A stretch of 64,000 nt of DNA from Spongospora subterranea f. sp. subterranea. Its lineage: Eukaryota. The stretch is taken from assembly GCA_049724395.1 (NCBI GenBank), contig JAUGWO010000097.1, positions 62,001-126,000 on the forward strand, read 5' to 3'. Positions 3,009-52,107 of the stretch are shown here, one piece after another. Within the stretch, counting starts at the first letter, position 1, and every line of letters starts with the position of its first letter. The notes under the pieces were generated by a model. It made no database searches, was not told the origin of the DNA, and saw only the letters and a list, made by a program, of their open reading frames with translations. Both the position numbers and the translations under genes were made by a program.

Positions 3009-3577
3009 GTGGATTCCCTGGTCTACAAGGATCTTTAGACTGTTATTATTGGAAATGGGACAAATGTCCCAAAGCAAAGCAGGGACAATTCCAGGCACAT
3101 CGATTTCCCTCGAGGCAGTGGTGGATGGCGAACTCTGGTTTGGCACGTTCATTTCGTAATACCAGGCGCTTTGAACGATAAAGATCAACGTTGCTGCATG
3201 ATCTAGTCAACGGCAAATCCCATTTCTGCCTCACCAAGAGGGTCCGGAATTGACTTCATGAACACATTCCATCTTGTATATTCGTCATCAACAAGAAGTA
3301 TGGCATGGTATATGTGTTGTCATCAACGGTGAAGGTAACTGAATGGGATTTGCCGTTGACTAAATCATGCAGCAACGTTGATCTTTGGGCAACTCGTTCA
3401 AGCACCTGGTACTGTATTCCGAAATGTACATGCGAAAACCAGAGTTAGCCAATCACCACTGCCTCGAGAGAAATCGATGTGCCTTTATGGCCCTTGAATT
3501 GTCCCTGCTTTGCTTAGGACATTTGTCCCATTTCCAATTGTAACAGTCTAACGATCCTTGTAGACCAGGGAATCCAC
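3009..3577. repeat. Long imperfect inverted repeat (arms 3009-3224 and 3342-3577, ~115 bp spacer)
   Basis: gtggattccctggtctacaagga... at 3009 is the reverse complement of ...tccttgtagaccagggaatccac ending at 3577. The match continues to cggcaaatcccatt / aatgggatttgccg. Confidence 0.95.
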
Positions 3578-4088
3578 GACCAACATTGACCCGAATGATC
3601 CTCTCTAAGTCTTCCGGCGTAGGAGCGCGTAAAGACTCGCCAGCAAATCTCCCCACAATTGCTGCAGCGAGCCGGTCAAGGCAAACTGCCGCAGTGCTCT
3701 CTCCCTCCATTCGGATATACTCTGACCACGTGGCCTCTAATGAATGTGGGAGAGCGAGCTGCTTGCAGTAAACTCGGAAACTCTGGATAGGCAATGTAAT
3801 CAGGTGGGGGCAAGTCCCATTCGTCGCACGCATCTGCACCGGTTCCATACGCCATTTGCCGAATCGCCGCGGTGATAATGGACAGATATAATCCGAGTAT
3901 ATGCGGTTCGCACCCAGTGCTCGTCCACGATCCACGTTAGGTTTTCGACCAATTCTCGAGCCTCCATGGCGAGAACCTAATTGCCCTGAGTTAGAAATAA
4001 CATCGTCGGATGAGAAGACAGCATCAATAGCAGCATCGTTCTGATCCTCTTCAAAAAACGACCCTTGCAACCGACGGAGCAGGTCCAT
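3230..4088 (-). mobile_element. PIF/Harbinger transposase pseudogene (Plant_tran-like nuclease)
   Basis: GGSRIGRKPNVDRGR, SEYIRMEGESTA, LRAPTPEDLERI..RGFPGLQGSLDCYNWKWDKCP, and downstream NGKSHSVTFTVD..YTMPY match the Harbinger RGFPGMLGSIDCMHW signature region. Frameshifted. Confidence 0.85.
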
Positions 4089-4316
4089 GAAGACATACGG
4101 GGTCGTTTTAGGGAATAAACCTCGCGGTGTTCAGCTGATCAGGTTCGGATCATTCCCCAAATAAGAGAAAGGCCGCTCGAACATATTTAAGGATAGGGAC
4201 TGTTTGCAGATTTGCGTTGGAGTTGCTCTAAATCAGGGTTTGGAACTTATATGGGACAACCTTAATGGAGAATTTGACTGTAACGGAGGATCCATCCTAT
4301 TGATGACCCCTGTCGC

Positions 4317-4857: not shown

Positions 4858-5736
4858 TTAATACAATCCCGGGGCGCCATAACCGCCGCTGCCATATCCT
4901 AATCCACCACCATATCCTAACCGACCATATCCCAACCCGCCATATCCCAACCCGCCATATCCACCTCCAGCATATCCCGCTTTTCCAAATCCTCGTCTCC
5001 CGAATTGCGATGCACCATATCCATTGTAGTTTCCCTGGTGGGCGCCCAAGTTAGCGTTCACCAACGCGTTCTTATTGGCGAAACTGTTGGCTTTATCTGC
5101 AGCTGATCTGACCATAGCAGCCTTACTTCCAGCTTTATATGCCGCATTTCGCTTAGCTGCGTTTTCAGCATTTAGGCTTGCAATCTTGTTCAATGCTGCT
5201 GCATTAGACTTGAGCGTCTTTGCCGCCTGGTTCTTGCTAGCGACTGCCTTAGATTCAGCCACCTCTTTAGCCGCATCATTGACAAAGCTATTGGTGATGT
5301 CCGAAGCTTTTTTCGAGAATATATTTAGGTTCTTCGCTCTTGAGAATTTGGCAGTATGAACCTTCTCAGCAGCCGTTTTTTTTGCCCTTGCATTTGCCTC
5401 ATTCAGTGCTGCAGCATTGGCGAATTTATCGTTTTCTGATGTTGCTGCAGCCACGTGTTTTCCTACAATATTCTTGTTTGCTTTGGCGGCCGCCGCGTTT
5501 TTGAACGACCGCCTAGCTGACGCTTTCTTGGCTGCTGCAGCTTGTAGCGCCGCTAACTCGGCGTTGGATAGGACGTTATTATTAGCCAGGGTTCCAGCGG
5601 ATAAACCTCCCTGGTATCCAGCACTCTTGCCATATTTTCCTATGCCAGCCCCATATCCTGCGCCTCCATATGTCGCATCGCTCTTTGCAATTAATATCGC
5701 CAAGACAGCGATGATCATCATTGAAACCTGATTCAT
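4858..5736 (-). CDS. Secreted Gly/Tyr- and Ala/Lys/Asn-rich structural protein (292 aa, intronless)
   Basis: Clean ATG-to-stop ORF with a signal-peptide-like N-terminus (MNQVSMMIIAVLAILIAKSDA), GYG-rich ends, GYGGL repeats and an Ala/Lys-rich helical core. Confidence 0.85.
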   Translation of the reverse strand: MNQVSMMIIAVLAILIAKSDATYGGAGYGAGIGKYGKSAGYQGGLSAGTLANNNVLSNAELAALQAAAAKKASARRSFKNAAAAKANKNIVGKHVAAATSENDKFANAAALNEANARAKKTAAEKVHTAKFSRAKNLNIFSKKASDITNSFVNDAAKEVAESKAVASKNQAAKTLKSNAAALNKIASLNAENAAKRNAAYKAGSKAAMVRSAADKANSFANKNALVNANLGAHQGNYNGYGASQFGRRGFGKAGYAGGGYGGLGYGGLGYGRLGYGGGLGYGSGGYGAPGLY

Positions 5737-6295
5737 CTTGAAAGATTCGCTCTGAAATACTGAATGACACTAACCGCGCTCTGCAAATCGGAATGTTTCT
5801 TTCCGGAGACTTGTTTTGCCACAATTTTCCGCCGATTTCGGCCAACGCCATCGGCTACGGTTTCCTCCGGATGGAACTGGTCACGCTGTCAACGTCCACA
5901 ATATATCTATGGCCTGCGAATTTTTATCCAATTCCTTCGGCCGTTTATCAGGCAAGCTAAAATAATACTCAGAATCTGACAAACTTTGAGGAAAATATTG
6001 ACAACCTCACCAGTCAACCGCATTTGTGCAAATGCCCAGCAAACAACCTCATCTAAATTCACAGCCCTATATTCCCATGGTCGATTATACCGAATGACCA
6101 TTCCATTTCAGAGAAGCTCATTGATCGTAAATGAAGGTTTCGATGAGTTTGTTGAAGTTTGTGATAAATCCAGATACTATGGTGTTGCGCTATGATGAGT
6201 TGACGTCATAACAATATCCCCTTTATTCTCTTCACAGGTCCCAAACCCATATCTGTCGGCAAAGGGTGATCCTCGCCTTCTCGCCTCCAGCGGTT

Positions 6296-14569: not shown

Positions 14570-15899
14570 TGTCGGTACCGTTGAATGGCGACAATCGACA
14601 CGACCGAATAGACAATGGCGCGTTGTTATTCAGATCTGAATGATCATGAAAATGATGGACCTATGTGTGAACTGTGAACAGTGGTGTTGGAGGAGGACCA
14701 TCAGGGGCTGCGCTATGACCGCACAACATGGTGTCAGTGTAACATGTGAGGGAGCGACAACATCATAACGATCACTACACTAGACCAGGACGCTGACCAC
14801 ATCACACCCGACAATTCACCGCTCAATAAGGATCGAAACTCAGATGGATCCTGAATGCTTTTCTGTTTGGAAAGTCGTTGTCAGGGCATTCTGCGGTTCA
14901 CGAAGGATAGAAAGCATCCTTTGACTTTCTTGCCTTCAATTCCTTTTAGGAATAGAGTTCATGGTGCAACACAATTAGCAATTATTCCAAAATTGTTTTT
15001 AAGAGTTTGTATTCATAAACAACAACATAAAAGCGTGTCAATGCTTTGTCCTCTAAAGTGTACCGATATGTTGAAACAAGCGTTTCATTTGCGGAAATCG
15101 CAACGAGTCGATGAATACAACAGTGTAGAAATATCATTTCGATTCTGTGGATTTTCTGAAAAAAACTATGCTATCAAGGGTGACGACTGATGAGTAATGT
15201 TGAACCATTCAGGAATGGACCTTGAGCCCCCTTGATCGGTGTATTATACAAAACACTCTGTTAACAACGACCTACTTATTTGCACTGCTCCAAATATTCT
15301 GAATGAAGAGTCCCATTCTATCCCTTAAAGCAACGCCTCAAACCCCCGATAAGCAAGGTCGAATCCCGTGCGACGAGACGCAAAACTGACTACGACCTCG
15401 GCATGAAGTTGCAGCCAAACGACGGCAGCGTCGGGGTTTGGCTATACCAACCTCATAGCAACTTCAGGGTCAGACCAGATTCTACGCGACGCCAACACGC
15501 ACACAGCATACGGTTGCTCTTAAAAACTCACGATGGATAGAACTGCGACGGCAAACTCCGACGCGTACGGCAGCGAAACGCAAACATGATTACAGTTGCA
15601 GCCCAAGCGGAAGTCCGGAACCAATGCAACTGGAAGCAGGCAAGTGCTAACGGAGAGAGCCACGAGCGGCCTCCGACAGCAAAAAACCATCACGGCTGAA
15701 ACACCACCAGACCAAAGCAGAGTTAACTACGAACAAGCCATTACTTTCGACAAATGCGGGGAATAGATGACGAATTACTGCCCAAAACTCTTAAGGAGTA
15801 AAAGTTTTTAAAACATTGAATCCGCGAACCTTTCACACAGCGACACAGTGGAACGGTAGTGGTAAAGGGATTAACATCAGGTGTACCAATCAGAACGAA

Positions 15900-16620
15900 C
15901 AAAGACAATCACATAGAAATGAGATACATTTATCGCTTGCAATCATCGAGAACACTCCAATAGACCAACCAAAATTGAATTGGATGGCATCAAACGTACC
16001 ATTCTCATGCGCGGCATCCCCAAATTCATGGTGGCCAACGGAACGGCAATTCTGGGATGGAAGGGCACTAAACCAACTAAAATACAGTCAATTGGAGAGA
16101 ATACGTAATAATACCATGTTGACAATGAGAAACCAGCACAACCGTTGGTCCGCACAGGAAAGACATGAACCTTTTCTCTTCCGCACGTTGTGCACTTGAT
16201 TCCAGTTTGATCTGTTGTTCCTTTGTGTGGGCATTCTGTAGCCTTATGCTCATTGCTACCATATATTTCACAGCGAAAGTCCTCATAGTTTTGCTTCTGT
16301 TCGCAGGATAACCGCAAGCATGTCGGGCATGCTTTCCATGTACTGCATACTCCTGGCAAACCATATTTTTCCTGTGCGAACCAAGGCTTGTGCTGGTTTC
16401 TCAGTATTAAACTGGCATTTGCACGTGTTCTCTCCAATTAACTGTACTTTAGTTGGTTTAAGTGCCCTTCCATCCCAGAATTTCAGTTCCGTTGGCAACC
16501 ATAAACTCGGGGATGCCGCGTACAACAATGGTACGTTTGATGTTGTCCATTCAGTGTTGATTGGTCTGCTGGAGTGTCCCAGTTTTCTGGCAAAACCATC
16601 CAGTGCCATGACACAAGCAG
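15900..16620 (-). mobile_element. Non-LTR (LINE) ORF1-like relic with zinc knuckles
   Basis: RTIVVRGIP..LVRTGKIW followed by decayed CCHC knuckles CEIYGSNEHKATECP and CTTCG. Frameshifted. Confidence 0.5.
15952..16577. repeat. Long imperfect inverted repeat (arms 15952-16167 and 16362-16577, ~195 bp spacer)
   Basis: aattctgggatggaagggcact pairs with agtgcccttccatcccagaatt, and tgagaaaccagcacaa with ttgtgctggtttctca. Roughly 80% identity by eye. Confidence 0.95.
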
Positions 16621-17175
16621 AGTATGCGGCTCATAGCAAATTGGTGGCCGAAGCCGCATAGATCCGTATACTGTTGGATTCCGCTTGAGGAAATGGTGCA
16701 GACGAATGGAGTAGGTCAAGAATGGGTCCATTCAGTTCAGTCTTTTCAATTCGGAGTTGAACCTTGCAGATGCACTGACGAAGCCGGCCATCCGGCATGG
16801 GTCGTTGGCGCCTTAGGGGCGGCCGTTACGTTGAGGAGACTGACGACTGACGTGTACTACGACCTACTTTTGAACTACTCCATATTCTACAAACAACGAT
16901 TTCGTTCATCGGCTAGAATGTACTCTAAATCAATTAAGGTTGCCAAAACTAATTACCTAAACGTATGAAAGAGCCGCTTGAATATTCCTCATACAATCAA
17001 TGAAAAAACAAGATGGTGTTTATCGATAGCAGCCAGCCTATTTTTGAAATGAGAATATTTAACGGCGAAACGGCTGTCGTGAGAAGGCAGCAGTCGTTTG
17101 AATACTGTATCGCCATTCGCTCACGGTAAATGTCAGGTAACAAGTCCGTAGGCCAGGTATAATTTTTCAAGAGCA

Positions 17176-24541: not shown

Positions 24542-26417
24542 GTACTCACCGGTGGGAGAACAATTTTCACCTTTTCAACCAAAAATGCCGTGGATACACC
24601 AAACTCTACCAGAATACCCAAATTATGGGTTATTTGTACGTCCGCGGTGGAGATGCTCTTAAGGTGAAAATTGTTCTCCCACCGCTGAGTACCTATACCC
24701 ATAATTTGGGTCGAATTTGTCCCTCCAGATGGGTATACCGTAGACCACGTAATAAACCCACAGATTTTTGCTCCATGTGGCGCAATTGCGTAGTCTTAAA
24801 ACCGGAGATAGATAGTGTCAGTTTTCCATTTTTTTTTATCAAATTCATGTCAAATTGAGCCGAGCGGTCGATTCCGCCATATGCTTATATACTGTTTGCT
24901 CCTGGAGCGATTCCAGGAGACGTTCAAATCGGCTCTGGTCCTCACTCCACGGATCTTGGCCACATACGGCGAAGGCGTCCGCTATCCAACGCCGGGTTCT
25001 GTTTCTCGCATTTATGTCGTCAAAGGCTGCCTCGATCATACCGATTAAGTTCTTTCGTGGAACGGAAAATACTGCCCCCGCAAGCTCTTTCGCTGACAGA
25101 TCTCCGATAGATAGCATTCTGAACTTGTAATATTCGGCCCTGATTTTTGCCTTGAGGGGCTTGTTAATTGCAATGTCGCAAATTTGGTGGATGGAATTCA
25201 TTCCCTCTCCAACGTATTCAATAAAGATTTTCCCCCGCGATGCAGATGCATGATTAGAACGAAGCCAATCATCTATGATCTTTCCGTAGCGTTGCTCGAT
25301 CTACTATTAACAGGGTTCGCTGACTAGGAAACATCTTCAACAGCCATTCCAGGTAGAGAACAAAAATATATTGTGTCATACAATGTGTTGGATTAAACAG
25401 AACTGTCGATCTGACATAATGTTTCCATTGGTGCATGAGAGTTGATCCAGAACCTCCACTATCAATGATGAATGCTGGTAGCAGCTGCGACGATAGTAGT
25501 GAGGCTGTGACCGCCAACGTGACTCCCTTTTTCTCATTTTGCACCGGAACAAGATTCCCAACGCGCTTAGTTCCCTTTGGAACAAGTACACGCTCCGACG
25601 CAGAGTAATACAGTATAAACGACTCATCCATGTTGAAGACATTTTCACATTGCAGGTCTTTCGCAGCCGCGCAGATCTTAGCCGATGATGCACGAGCGAT
25701 AGAGATCCAATCTGATGGAACCTTCTGAGAGATGGATCCTGCCCGGTCCGCATAATTAATTCGTTTGAGCAGCCTTGTCAGCCAGGTCCGAAGGTGTTTG
25801 GCGTCATGCAGCAATTTCTGGAAGCTTTCATTATTGCATCCACTCCAACGAATAACGGTTGCTGCACAAGCTTCCTCACGCGTCATGGGTTTTCCTCGCT
25901 GGAAACGTGAAACCACAAGGTCTTCCAACCAATCACGCTGTTCCTCATAACGAGTAGGCGGTCCCAGTTTGCTTTGCAACCCTGCGTTTGGGATTCTGCA
26001 CGTATTTCTCTTGACATACATGACATCCTTATTCTTGTGTGATAAAGTTGAAGCCCTTTGACAAGACACGACGCCATTGTTCAATAATAAAGTCAGTTGC
26101 TGCTGTTGGTTGCAAGCGAAAAGGTCCGCCTTAGCCTGGTACTCAGAGAGCAATTTCTTTGGAACTTTACTGTCGCCTGCACCATTCCTGAAAATTGATC
26201 GTTTTGCCTTTGGTACGAATTTCAAAATATCATCCTTTGTGACAGCGCTCACTATGTCGATCCACTTATAGATCTTCTCTTTGCGAAGCCAGTCTCTGCA
26301 TGTCTCAGGTTTTACAAGATGTCCGAAAACAGAAGTGAGATCATCAAAATCGGTCCGTCCTAACTGAGGATGCAGGAAGAACCCGATAATCATTGATCTG
26401 GCAGGCCATGTAGACAT
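24542..26417 (-). mobile_element. pogo/Tigger-type Tc1-mariner superfamily transposon, 5'-truncated and disrupted
   Basis: CENP-B-like HTH region (RGKPMTREE..WLTRLLKR) and DDE_1 motifs VFNMDES, LLIVDRA, ICDIAINKPLK. Frameshift near 25260. Subterminal inverted repeats at 24542-24710. Confidence 0.85.
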
Positions 26418-26419
26418 GC

Positions 26420-27079
26420 GGGGGAGTTGGTCACTAAACCAGTTACAGTGACCAAGGAAATATATGCAGACATGCTCATCTCAAAGGTTCTGCGGGCGAT
26501 CCGAGACCAGTGGCCGCGTGAAATTCGTCCCATATTCCTTCAACAAGACAACGCTAAACCGCATTTATCAGTTGATGATCCAAGGTTTATCGAAGCAGCA
26601 AGCGCTGAGGGTTTCGACATTCGTCTGCGCTGTCAGCCGCCCAACAGCCCGGGCATGAATGTTCTAGACCTGGGGTTCTTCAGTGCCATACAGGCACTTC
26701 AACACCAAAATGCTAAAAAAAAATGTAGACGAGTTGATAGCTGCAGTGAACAACGCGTTTGCCGAGCTGAATCTCAAAAAACTCAACTATGTTTTCCTAA
26801 CTCTGCAGCAATGCATGGTCTTAACAATGAAAGAAAGTGGGAGGATCAGCTACAAGCTGCCACACATGGGCAAAGAGATGTTGGAGCGCCCAGGAGAACT
26901 ACCATTGGTTATCGATGTCAATACGGAACTTGTCGAGAGCGTCAAAGCCCTAATTTCCACAAAATAAACCGCAAATATCTTCCCTTTGTTGCCATGATCC
27001 GTTAAAACTGCTTCCTACACCCTGTTTCATTGTTAAAACCACACGTCTCTGCTGTCACCACCAAATGGGACAGAGGGAG
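26420..27079 (+). mobile_element. DD39D mariner-like element, 3' half with right TIR
   Basis: IFLQQDNAKPH...QPPNSPGMNVLDLGFF with exactly 39 residues between the two Asp. Frameshift in an A-run at ~26715. Ends GGGACAGAGGGAG followed by TA (27080-27081), i.e. TIR CTCCCTCTGTCCC. Confidence 0.9.
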
Positions 27080-33959: not shown

Positions 33960-34966
33960 TCAGCCGTGATCGACAGGATTCAGAGTATTTTCAGACCCTA
34001 CTGGATGACCGGCCGCTGACACCTGACCGGGCAGTGCTCCGTCGTTATCGTCAATCTGCATAGGTTTCTTGTCGTCATTGGCCGTCTTTGACGCCGCCAT
34101 CTCCCTTTCTGCTCGCATCGCGACGACTCGCTCCATTTGCTCCGTCTTCTTTCGCGTTTCGGTCTCGATCCATTGACGCGAATCGATCTCCGTCCGTTGA
34201 TGCAACGAATCGAATTCCTGCAGGATGCAGGATTTCAGCCAGTCGACACCTAGCACGATCTGTTGATCAGGAAGCGCCGAAGCAGGCGATGGACTAGTGT
34301 CTGAATCAGGTTTGGCATACGCTCTAAACGACAACAAATGAGAATCTGGCAGTCGTTGGCCATAAACCATGATCGTACACGCAACTCAATACCCGGTAAT
34401 GATCGCTGGGGATCGGTGAGAGATCGAGCCGTTGGCTGATCTCGTCAATCGATAGGGCACCGGGCAGATCCTGCTTATTCGCCAAGCTGTCAAGGGATTA
34501 GCAGCAAGGTTGGCATTGGTTATCGAGTTCACCAACATGAGGATCGGCTTGCCGATAATTAACGGGTTCTGAATCACAGAGCCCAAGGCGGTTGACGCAT
34601 CGGATATTCGGTCGTCGGCAGAGGCATCGATTACGAACACAAGACCGTGCAGCTGAATTCACACGCCAGATAGAATTCAGAGACGATTGACTGGGGATTC
34701 ATTTCTGGGTATCGGCTGACCTCGTGGAAGTAATTGGGCCAATATTGCCTAATGGACGCGCCACCGCCAAGATCGTAAACCGTCAGTTTAACATGGCCAG
34801 AATCGACCTGGACGTTGGAGAATCCCACTGTGGGCGTGACCATTCGATGGCGGTCCCCAGTGATGTTGTTGACGACTGTGGATTTCCCAGCGTTGTCCAG
34901 GCCCAAGACGGCCAGTTTGATGTTGGGACGGGATTTCGGGCGACAACACGACACAGTACAGCCCAT
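33960..34966 (-). CDS. ARL13: Ciliary Arf-like GTPase ARL13
   Basis: GLDNAGKST, PTVGF, the diagnostic DLGGG (Gly in place of the catalytic Gln), LANKQD, N-terminal CC palmitoylation site and a C-terminal coiled coil. Three introns. Confidence 0.92.
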
Positions 34967-48373: not shown

Positions 48374-51300
48374 ATGGAAGGAACCCAACAACAACGGGAA
48401 CTTCTCCCTTCATGCATTCGACCCGTCCACTATGAATTAACTCTAACACCAGACTTGACGGAGTGCACGTTTACTGGCATATGTTCGATCGATGTTGATG
48501 TTTTGTCTTCGACGGACACTATTGTTCTCAATGCAAAAGATATGAAAGTGGAATCAGTGAAAATAAGCTTGGGTATTGCCGTAAAGTCATTTGATATCGA
48601 TACTGCTAAGGACTGGCTCTCTGTTCGCTTAAACAAGCAATTGCCCGTTGGCAAAGCGACTATGTGCGTACCTGTTGTTTCAATAGGAGTTTTCTTCATT
48701 CTCATAATCTGTAAAGCACTTTCAACTACACTGGAATTTTGAATGATAAGATGTGTGGGTTTTATGCAAGTAAGTACGAAAGTTCCGGCGTCCAAAAAAC
48801 CATGGCAGTCACGCAATTCGAGGTTTGTCTTCTCAACCAGGTACTGCTTAATTTGCGATTACGATCAATGAACAGGCATGCGATGCGAGGAGAGCATTAC
48901 CTTGTTGGGACGAGCCTGCGATAAAAGCAACGTTTGGGGTCTCCCTGGTTATTGATAAAGTCCGTATTTTCATTTTTTCATGCAATTCAGTTTTTATGCT
49001 CAGTTATTTCCAGGACCTTGTTGCCGTGAGTAATATGCCAGAAAGTGCAGTGGAGGACATGGGCAACGGTAAAGTCAAGCGAACTTTCAGTAACACTCCC
49101 ATCATGTCCACATACCTATTGGCGTTCATTGCTGGAGAATTTGACAATGTTGAAACGGTAAGTTTTCCTCGGGAATTGTCGTTCGCGCCGAACTTTTTTT
49201 GCTCATTGGTTTCTAATACTCAGGTCTCTCGTGACGGCGTTGTAATTCGCGTTTTTACCCCAGTGGGTGAAAAACGGCAAGGAGAGTTTGCCGTAGATAT
49301 CGCTGTTAAATGTCTTGATTTCTACAACGAATATTTCGAGATCAAGTATCCCTTGCCTAAGGTATTTTTATCAATCCGCTGCGATCATGGACGTCATTAG
49401 CCTTACCTAGCTTGATTTACTTGCAATCCCTGATTTCGCTTCTGGTGCTATGGAAAAGGTCGGACATATATATCATTGCTTGGGAGTGCAACATTTGACT
49501 TTGCCTCGTTTTTCAGTTGGTTTTCGGGAGAATACGATTGTTTCGTTTCTCACAGTTGCGTTTGTAGCTGGGGATGCGTAACATATCGCTCCACTGCTCT
49601 CCTAGTTGATCCGGAAAAGTCTTCAGCTTCAACAAAGCAATATGTGGCGTTAGTTGTTGCCCATGAACTTGCTCATCAATGGTTCGGTAACGTACGTCTT
49701 ACTGTGCAAAGATGTCATTGGATAATTAATGTTGATTTCTCTAGCTCGTGACAATGGAATGGTGGACAGATTTATGGTTAAATGGTAAGTTTTATTCAAA
49801 TGCCAGAAAATATTATCATTTAGTAATAAGATAGAGGGTTTCGCTTCCTGGGTTGAGTATCTTGCAGTCGATCACTTGTTTCCTGATTGGAAAATGTAAT
49901 ACAAATACCCCCTTCATGTTCTTTTATCTTACATTCACTCTTAGGTGGACGCAATTTGTATCTCAGGTATCAACGATCCACTCTCGGCCTGGAATGTCTC
50001 CATTTACAGTTAACAGGACTTTGGGAATGCTCTCTCGTTGGATGCGCTACTAAACTCTCATCCTGTCGAGGTTCCTGTGTTCAAGGCATCTGAAGGTATG
50101 TTCGTTTTCAAAATCATTGTCGTACAACTTCTCACAATTTTTTTTAGTTGATGAAATTTTTGATTCAATCAGCTACTGCAAAGGTTCTCCATCATTCTTG
50201 AAATGGAAGTCGTTCTTTGACCTATTGAAACTAGGTGGTTCGATTATTCGAATGTTGGTCAGCTATCTAGGAGATGAGGCTTTTCGTAAAGGTATCCACG
50301 CTATTACTCTTTGTTTCAAACAACAGTTTTTCATTACGCGTAGGCATGGTTTTGTATTTGAACCGTCATTCGTACGGGAATGCCAGCACTATTGATTTGT
50401 GGAATGCTCTTGGTGAATCGACCGGCAAGCCTGTTGCCTCCGTCATGGAAAAGTGGACGCAGACTCAGGTACAACACCTATGATAAGGCATAACCTGTTA
50501 AGAATTAAATTTTCAGGGATTTCCTGTTATTTTTGTTGAAAATGATCCGACGCATACTAGTTTGTGTCTTCGCCAAGAAAGGCAAGCAGTATGAGATCAA
50601 TTTACAGAGTTGTTTTGATTGGACTCTAGGTTCTTGGTGGAAGGCGTCTCCGATAAATTCACGGCGCAGATTTGGCCCATTCCCATCTCTATGGTGACGG
50701 ACCGTTCCAACCAGCTCTCAATAGGTTTATTTTCGAAAAAAAATGGTATGTTACATTCAAGTGTATTTTTTACAATTCTTATTTTATTCAGAATCCTTCG
50801 CCTTTGGTGAGCTGAAGCCTTCCTTCGTAAAGCTCAACGCTGGTCAATCTGGAGTGTACCGTGTCCGGTATTCTACAGAAATGTTCGATAAAATCATCAC
50901 CGCCATCAAGGACTCGAAATTGACAGATCCTGCAGACAGGTCCGTTCGCCATCGCGTCTTGACTTGCACAATGAAAACCGTTATGTAGACTTGGTGTACA
51001 AAATGACGCAATTGCATTGGCTCAAGCTGGACTTTTGCAAACACCGAACGTTTTGAATTTGCTGCTGTCTTACGTCAGTGAAACGAATTATACTGTATGG
51101 TCGGATATCATGTCAGCCAATGTCGGCAAAGTTAAAGGGTAAGGCTGGTTGAGTAATGGATTTTCGCGTTTTTAACTTGAATGTTAGATTGCTGATCATG
51201 GATAAGGAGCTGTATCACAAATTCAAGCAGTTCGTTCAAGAATTATTGAGAGATGTTGCTACGCTCGTAGGATGGGATGCTAAACCGGCTGATGATCACC

Positions 51301-52107
51301 TCACGTCAATGTTGAGAAGTCTAGTTATTCCTAAGATTGGTTATAAACATGTTCTTGATCAAATATTCCGGGCTGACACATATGCTCTTCAGGTATTAAT
51401 GGAGACCCTTCTACAATTGCTGAAGCTTTGAGGCGTTTCGATTTATTTGCGGAGTCAAATTTCCAGTCCGATCTTTCACCGGATTTGAGAACTGGTGTAT
51501 ATTGTATCGCCATTGCAAATCGTGGTGTTTCAGCTTATGAAACGCTTTTGAAGCTTTATCGAACAACCTCCTCACCAAGAAGAAAAGGTTCTGACACATT
51601 TATCTTTGTGACCGTTGATATCTTATTCAATTGTTGTTAGGTGCGCATTCTCTCGTCCCTTGGAGCTGCTGAAGATCCTGCACTTCTTCAAAGCGCAATA
51701 GATTTATGTTTTTCTAATGACGTTCGCAAGCAAGACATCATGTACATCCTTCGAGGAGTGGCGGCTAATCCGTTAGGTGTTAAGCTGGCTTGGCAATGGC
51801 TTCAAGATCATTATGACGAAATTGTCAAAAGCTTCGGCAATGGTCCGAACTTTAGCCGATTGATTTCTTATGCCACAAGTAATTTTACTTCGCATGAGAT
51901 GGCGAAAGAGGTGATTTCGATTGTTTTCGCCTGCACTCAAAACCAATCTTATTGTGTTTCCAGATATCCACATTTTTTGATAATCACGAAGCAGTTGGAG
52001 CTGAACGTACAATTAAACAAAGCATCGAACAGATTGAAGCAGCTGCGTCTTGGCTTGCGCGTGATCGGGAAGTTCTGAAGAATTGGCTTGGTACCCGTTA
52101 CGGATGA
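48374..52107 (+). CDS. M1 family puromycin-sensitive-like aminopeptidase
   Basis: [75 protein letters not shown]. About 20 short introns including one GC-AG. Frameshift near 51570. Confidence 0.97.
49458..49567 (+). other. Candidate [D1,2] spliceosomal twin intron (stwintron)
   Basis: The GAMEN|WG reading frame requires removal of 49458-49567, which begins GG. An internal GT-AG intron (49459-49516, 58 nt) sits between the G and T of an external GTTGGT..AG intron (52 nt). Confidence 0.68.

Follow-up and report, generated by a model that had tools for sequence, protein, structure and literature searches.

Within the window (the whole stretch of 64,000 nucleotides analyzed), a gene for a puromycin-sensitive-type M1 aminopeptidase lies on the plus strand at 48374..52107, and RNA joints together with the gene model give a product of 863 amino acids and 21 intervening sequences. 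Pfam Peptidase_M1_N and Peptidase_M1 matches were detected on two of its exons, and the model shares 63.6% identity with Plasmodiophora brassicae protein P0257 over 877 columns. The frame is open only when an extra base at 51570 is disregarded; this surplus base, which frameshifts the gene in the window, is an assembly error because DNA runs X1 and X2 do not contain it. The 20 other introns of the gene measure 46-66 nt (mean 51.6), of which 17 are based on RNA joints, pieces or loose ends and three on the reading frame and bin depths. A GC-AG intron of 48 nt, supported by RNA joints, occurs in the same gene at 50582-50629.

The intervening sequence of interest is 110 nt long, has GG and AG ends and splits the active-site motif GAMENWG. 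The upstream exon (49411..49457, plus strand) ends with GGT GCT ATG GAA AA, interrupting the Asn codon of GAMEN in phase 2, and assembled contigs end or jump at 49457. The downstream exon (49568..49691, plus strand) begins with C TGG GGA and encodes WGCVTYR followed by the HELAH zinc-binding motif. Between the two exons, all on the plus strand, lie a single G (49458..49458), a 58-nt segment with GT..AG ends (49459..49516; GTCGGA...TTGAC...TTTTTCAG) and a 51-nt remainder (49517..49567; TTGGT...CTCAC...TGTAG), which amounts to 52 nt when the single G is counted. This is the layout given in the preliminary description, which proposed an intron nested inside the donor of another, and its statement that both halves are of normal local size also holds: 58 and 52 nt fall inside the 46-66 nt range of the gene's introns, whereas 110 nt is outside it and twice the local size. 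Branch-like motifs were found 19 nt from the end of the inner segment (TTGAC) and 16 nt from the end of the outer one (CTCAC), as matches to a loose motif that 14 of the 20 other introns also contain.

All splicing paths made of GT/GC-AG introns of at least 25 nt were enumerated and tested for a restored MENWG. No single-intron path and no serial two-intron path of this kind restored it, so the earlier claim that one-step GT-AG splicing breaks GAMENWG stands. Two nested paths restored it, one of 58+52 nt and one of 28+82 nt, the halves of the latter lying outside the intron size range of the gene. Every route other than the nested one leads to a stop or to foreign residues, and early stops are present alike in the unspliced RNA, the RNA lacking only the inner segment and the 109-nt one-step product. 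The AME motif was found in 117 of 134 compared proteins, and all 117 of these read AMENWG. Splice sites were scored with matrices from the gene's 20 other introns, real donors being left out in turn: the inner donor reached 4.5, the GTTGGT donor that would be rebuilt by removal of the inner 58 nt reached 2.6 and the one-step GG reached -0.3, compared with 0.8-10.8 for the 20 real donors. The rebuilt donor is weak, with only two of the 20 real donors scoring lower. The acceptors scored 4.7 (inner) and 4.2 (outer), and the inner sites are inside the range of the other introns, six of which (6/20) use the same AAG|GT donor context. The GTTGGT hexamer, said earlier to be shared with an intron in an ARL13-like gene, was indeed located there, as the apparent donor of a putative 50-nt intron on the minus strand (34487-34536) whose removal would restore GKPILILANKQD, as judged from the motif.

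When the interior of the intervening sequence was shuffled, a YAG|T placed so as to give halves of compatible size turned up in 809 of 5000 sequences, and in 81 of 5000 both new sites scored as well as those observed. Across the window, four [D1,2]-like architectures were counted, compared with 0-4 (mean 2.1) in 10 shuffled windows, which is no enrichment. The DNA pattern by itself is only modest evidence, and it is the RNA joints that carry the case. The architecture at +42308 seemed open in one frame but was discarded: the true frame (ZGRF1-like_N) extends to the canonical GT of 42309 and is resumed after a GT-AG intron of 94 nt. It belongs to a ZGRF1-like helicase gene (42160-45200, plus strand) with a weak ZGRF1-like_N match (E 0.0018, under the Pfam cut-off), the second intron of which has a stwintron-like look but is read as ordinary; at 94 nt it is long for this genome. 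At two others with high scores, -20832 and -15830, no frame stayed convincingly open through the junction, and both are within chance expectation. The inner and outer halves of the aminopeptidase sequence were no more alike than is common in shuffles (the score was attained in 207 of 1000), which leaves tandem duplication of one intron unsupported; a search for sister copies within the window returned only the self-match, and no terminal inverted repeat or terminal stem was found in the intervening sequence (folding z = +1.14).

The two adjacent Gs at 49458-9 had been singled out beforehand as a point on which the proposal could fail, since a single G would leave an ordinary 109-nt intron. They are present in DNA runs X1 and X2 and in RNA run X3, which come from three studies. 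The comparison covered eight of 24 sequencing runs, among them the raw-read run X24, which contributed zero reads. In X1 and X2 (DNA-type, two studies, either of which may be the window's own source), the whole gene was recovered in one piece, and the sole difference from the window is the base at 51570. The X3 contig covers 49452-49691 with zero differences from the window and represents RNA in which all 110 nt are still present; per-bin depths indicate splicing farther downstream, the contig not being a single molecule. That the window contains a 1-nt error in this very gene lends some color to the idea that the extra G is another one, yet besides the GG in all three runs, a partly spliced RNA from run X5 (see below) keeps one G while losing an intron that starts with GT, and the P. 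brassicae models show an equal offset. The GG in X1-X3 and this X5 intermediate refute the ordinary 109-nt intron, and an assembly error at this place is hardly conceivable.

Joints were read over 49290-49720. The mature one, 49457>49568, leaves out 110 nt bounded by GG and AG, is unambiguous in position and was observed at depth 2015 in X9 and at depth 4 in X5, and also in X16 as a loose end and in X6 by bin arithmetic (61 and 42 bases covered in the two bins). It restores GAMENWG, giving MENWGCVTYR, and it keeps zero internal letters, so that no micro-exon lies between two introns. In X5, whose sample kind is unrecorded and whose contigs are spliced, a 112-nt contig of depth 4.8 lacks only 49459-49516 (58 nt, GT..AG); G49458 is joined to TTGGT and 49517-49567 are kept. 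Thus, the external donor nucleotide and the 51-nt remainder are retained in this intermediate and gone from the mature contigs, and the 58-nt segment is excised alone. The junction GGAAAAG/TTGGTTTTC predicted in the preliminary description is exactly that of this contig, and the mature GGAAAA/CTGGGG junction foreseen there is present as well. All three RNA species were therefore seen: unspliced (X3), intermediate (X5) and mature (X5, X9, X16 and X6). The intermediate is known from one contig of one study, i.e., from one of the five RNA-type contig runs examined (X3, X5, X6, X9 and X16), at a depth below 5, where contigs may be errors, and with a short side of 29-31 letters. With a depth of 4.8 versus 4.0 for the mature form, it accounts for roughly half the junction depth of that run.

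A single contig of low depth with short flanks could in principle reflect an artefact of assembly or reverse transcription, in which case the extra G would have to be lost otherwise, e.g., through a splice of 109 nt and a later loss of a single base. The joint, however, falls on GT..AG ends that had been predicted beforehand, only 2 nt of sequence are shared across it, the intermediate and the mature contig of 60 nt make up a clean bubble, and the 109-nt form was absent from the runs examined (contigs drop rare forms). An artefactual origin is thus very improbable.

The coexistence of intermediate and product does not in itself prove that one is converted into the other. The same mature junction would arise if a GG donor were used in a single non-canonical splice, either as a 110-nt GG-AG intron or by a cut one base upstream of GT, with the 58-nt excision as a dead-end side reaction giving a frameshifted, stop-containing RNA. 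The inner-only RNA does have an early stop, in X5 it is as abundant as the mature form (4.8 vs 4.0), a high level for something transient, and GG-AG is mentioned alongside non-canonical splice sites in the portion of the literature consulted. But the GG donor scores under all 20 real donors, an intron of 110 nt would be double the local size, and it would take a coincidence for the side product to restore a GT donor that gives both the needed junction and a normal-sized intron, which 81 of the 5000 shuffles above do as well; moreover, there is no obvious bar to the spliceosome using the rebuilt donor. A single-step origin is accordingly considered unlikely, though less so than an artefact.

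We consider it very probable that the 110-nt GG...AG sequence is a [D1,2] stwintron, that is, two short introns, one inside the donor of the other. The sequence starts with GGY and is absent as a whole from the mature mRNA; a canonical internal intron lies between donor nucleotides 1 and 2; a canonical external intron in the right frame results once the inner one is removed; and the splinter is detectable in RNA. Removal likely proceeds in two ordered splicing steps, an order deduced from the products. In the first, whose product was seen, the 58-nt GT-AG intron 49459-49516 would be taken out and G49458 joined to TTGGT to form the GTTGGT donor. In the second, whose product was also seen and whose route is presumed, the 52-nt intron would be removed at the TAG ending at 49567, joining AA to C TGG and giving Asn-Trp of GAMENWG. 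The likely reason for this order is intron definition, with pairing of the nearest donor and acceptor in a genome of introns of about 50 nt, as established in fungi and presumed to apply here. Judging by how much intermediate X5 contains and by the retained form of X3, the steps may be slow in some samples.

The host is a plasmodiophorid (Rhizaria), as judged from its best protein matches, which are to P. brassicae, and the earlier view that it is a non-fungal protist agrees with this. A P. brassicae protein matches a KH-domain exon 30 kb distant at 91% identity, no other among the matches listed exceeding 63%, and the aminopeptidase is 62-64% identical to the P. brassicae models and 47-54% identical to four other homologues. 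The GC content of the window (41-50% per 2 kb) fits the 45.7% given for Spongospora subterranea in the accessible text of PMC12883290.

All three full-length P. brassicae models (the locus there is that of CEO97676.1 / SPQ98222.1) break at the GAMEN codon and read GAMEK. In P0255, GAMEK is followed by loss of WGCVTYR, and in P0256 and P0257 the reading is GAMEK-VR(V/I) with a V...SWG continuation (AAR GTN ... AG+Y), an annotation error of the kind that an offset donor should produce. Because K-V corresponds to AAR GTN and the S preceding WG is compatible with AG+Y, the P. brassicae intervening sequence likely has one purine ahead of its GT, which is the same offset donor; a G as this purine and an internal AG|T are presumed from the protein models. 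The P. brassicae insert would be only 39 nt if no spurious intron were called inside it. The stwintron is probably shared with P. brassicae, and gain of the inner intron would then probably predate the split of this host from that species.

In metagenomes, the stwintron-specific pattern at the GAMEN position was found at zero loci, and none of 11 loci retrieved with a wider pattern (0/11) carries a stwintron there. Six of these 11 loci, representing four distinct eukaryote sequences, have a canonical GT-AG intron, 60-114 nt long, that interrupts AA|Y at the same point; among the remainder, L005 reads GAMEKWG with no intron and four of the 11 are without a matching acceptor. In P0001, the closest cluster from metagenomes, GAMENWG is read with no break. 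Since a standard intron stands at the exact position in other eukaryotes, the outer intron is taken to be the older, and the inner one may have arisen inside its donor, where AA-G would supply an AAG|GT context as its birthplace. The metagenomic carriers are distant homologues, and their introns may also have been gained at this position in parallel. In L004, L006 and L007, the intron is 114 nt long, starts with GTGTCGT and has internal AGs at 24, 42 and 77, and one-step splicing gives the correct product.

As far as the accessible portions of the sources go, the closest known systems are the [D1,2] stwintrons of Pezizomycotina, especially that of Aspergillus lipS (53+46 nt) and the uniquely occurring stwintrons of Hypoxylaceae (PMC5639578, PMC9024468, PMC12403724). 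The features of the aminopeptidase sequence match the definition of the class as worded in the text available of PMC12403724 and PMC5639578: both have a GGT start, an internal U2-type intron between donor nucleotides 1 and 2 and halves of minimal size, and also in common are a splinter in RNA data, a standard intron at the site in other lineages and mis-annotation by gene callers. The read test applied to fungal stwintrons, 'splinter plus exon fusion' in the part seen of PMC9024468, is of the same type as the evidence presented here, and the lipS and bioDA stwintrons likewise have a standard intron at the same position in other lineages, according to the available sections of PMC5639578. Unlike the fungal cases, the host is a rhizarian plasmodiophorid and not an ascomycete, and in one run the intermediate accounts for about half of all junction depth; unlike repeated sister stwintrons, the aminopeptidase case is without near-terminal inverted repeats and without a sister copy in the window.

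Alternatively spliced [D1,2]/[A2,3] stwintrons, such as that of Helminthosporium alternative oxidase, resemble it in the GG start and the two-step logic, but in the accessible text (PMC5639578, PMC5587772) they require the next exon to start with G; the aminopeptidase exon starts with C at 49568, and therefore only the [D1,2] route is available. Recursive splicing at zero-nucleotide exons and nested introns, described for Drosophila, mammals and Cryptococcus BOT1 (10.1101/224170, seen in part), similarly involves two-step removal in which the first step frees a donor. In those cases the pivot is AG|GT and the splice signals are left intact, whereas the aminopeptidase pivot is AG|T with its G coming from upstream of the first intron, a line drawn in the consulted part of PMC5587772; the first donor lies one base inside the intervening sequence and not at the exon end. 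Euglena plastid group II/III twintrons are also introns inside an essential element of another intron, but they are organellar and ribozyme-type in the available description (PMC12403724), and the aminopeptidase introns are nuclear and spliceosomal.

No donor-nested spliceosomal intron in a protist was found among the papers listed in searches of openly available main texts. Within the same literature, stwintrons have so far been shown only in (ascomycete) fungi, and the aminopeptidase case would represent a new supergroup. An RNA-supported rhizarian case would mean that donor-nested splicing is not peculiar to fungi; it would also provide evidence for intron definition in a little-studied parasite lineage and a datable intron gain within an older intron. 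In addition, it would explain the errors of all three P. brassicae models at the active-site motif, and it offers a simple genome-wide screen for junctions of about 100-120 nt with GG..AG ends.

A bolder and rather doubtful idea is that this is a conserved plasmodiophorid stwintron at an ancient position, in which a slow second step acts as a stage-dependent switch gating the aminopeptidase. In this view, retained or half-spliced RNA with early stops would dominate in X3 and X5 and fully spliced RNA in X6 and X9; contigs drop rare forms, and their depths cannot measure splicing differences between runs. If this reading were true, eukaryotes with short introns would harbor stwintrons as a general class that has been overlooked, masked by 'GG-AG' junctions and by gene models that are broken.

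Elsewhere in the window, open reading frames at 3453-4130 and 24845-27005 appear to resemble DDE transposase remnants. Tandem near-repeats of roughly 375 nt occupy 15795-16661, with similar stretches near 16077 and 16452. A single-exon gene on the minus strand (4858-5769) encodes an Ala/Gly/Lys-rich protein of about 292 amino acids, for which no exact-sequence match was found in the protein collection; with its hydrophobic N-terminus and GYG-rich ends, it is possibly a secreted structural (spore wall) protein.
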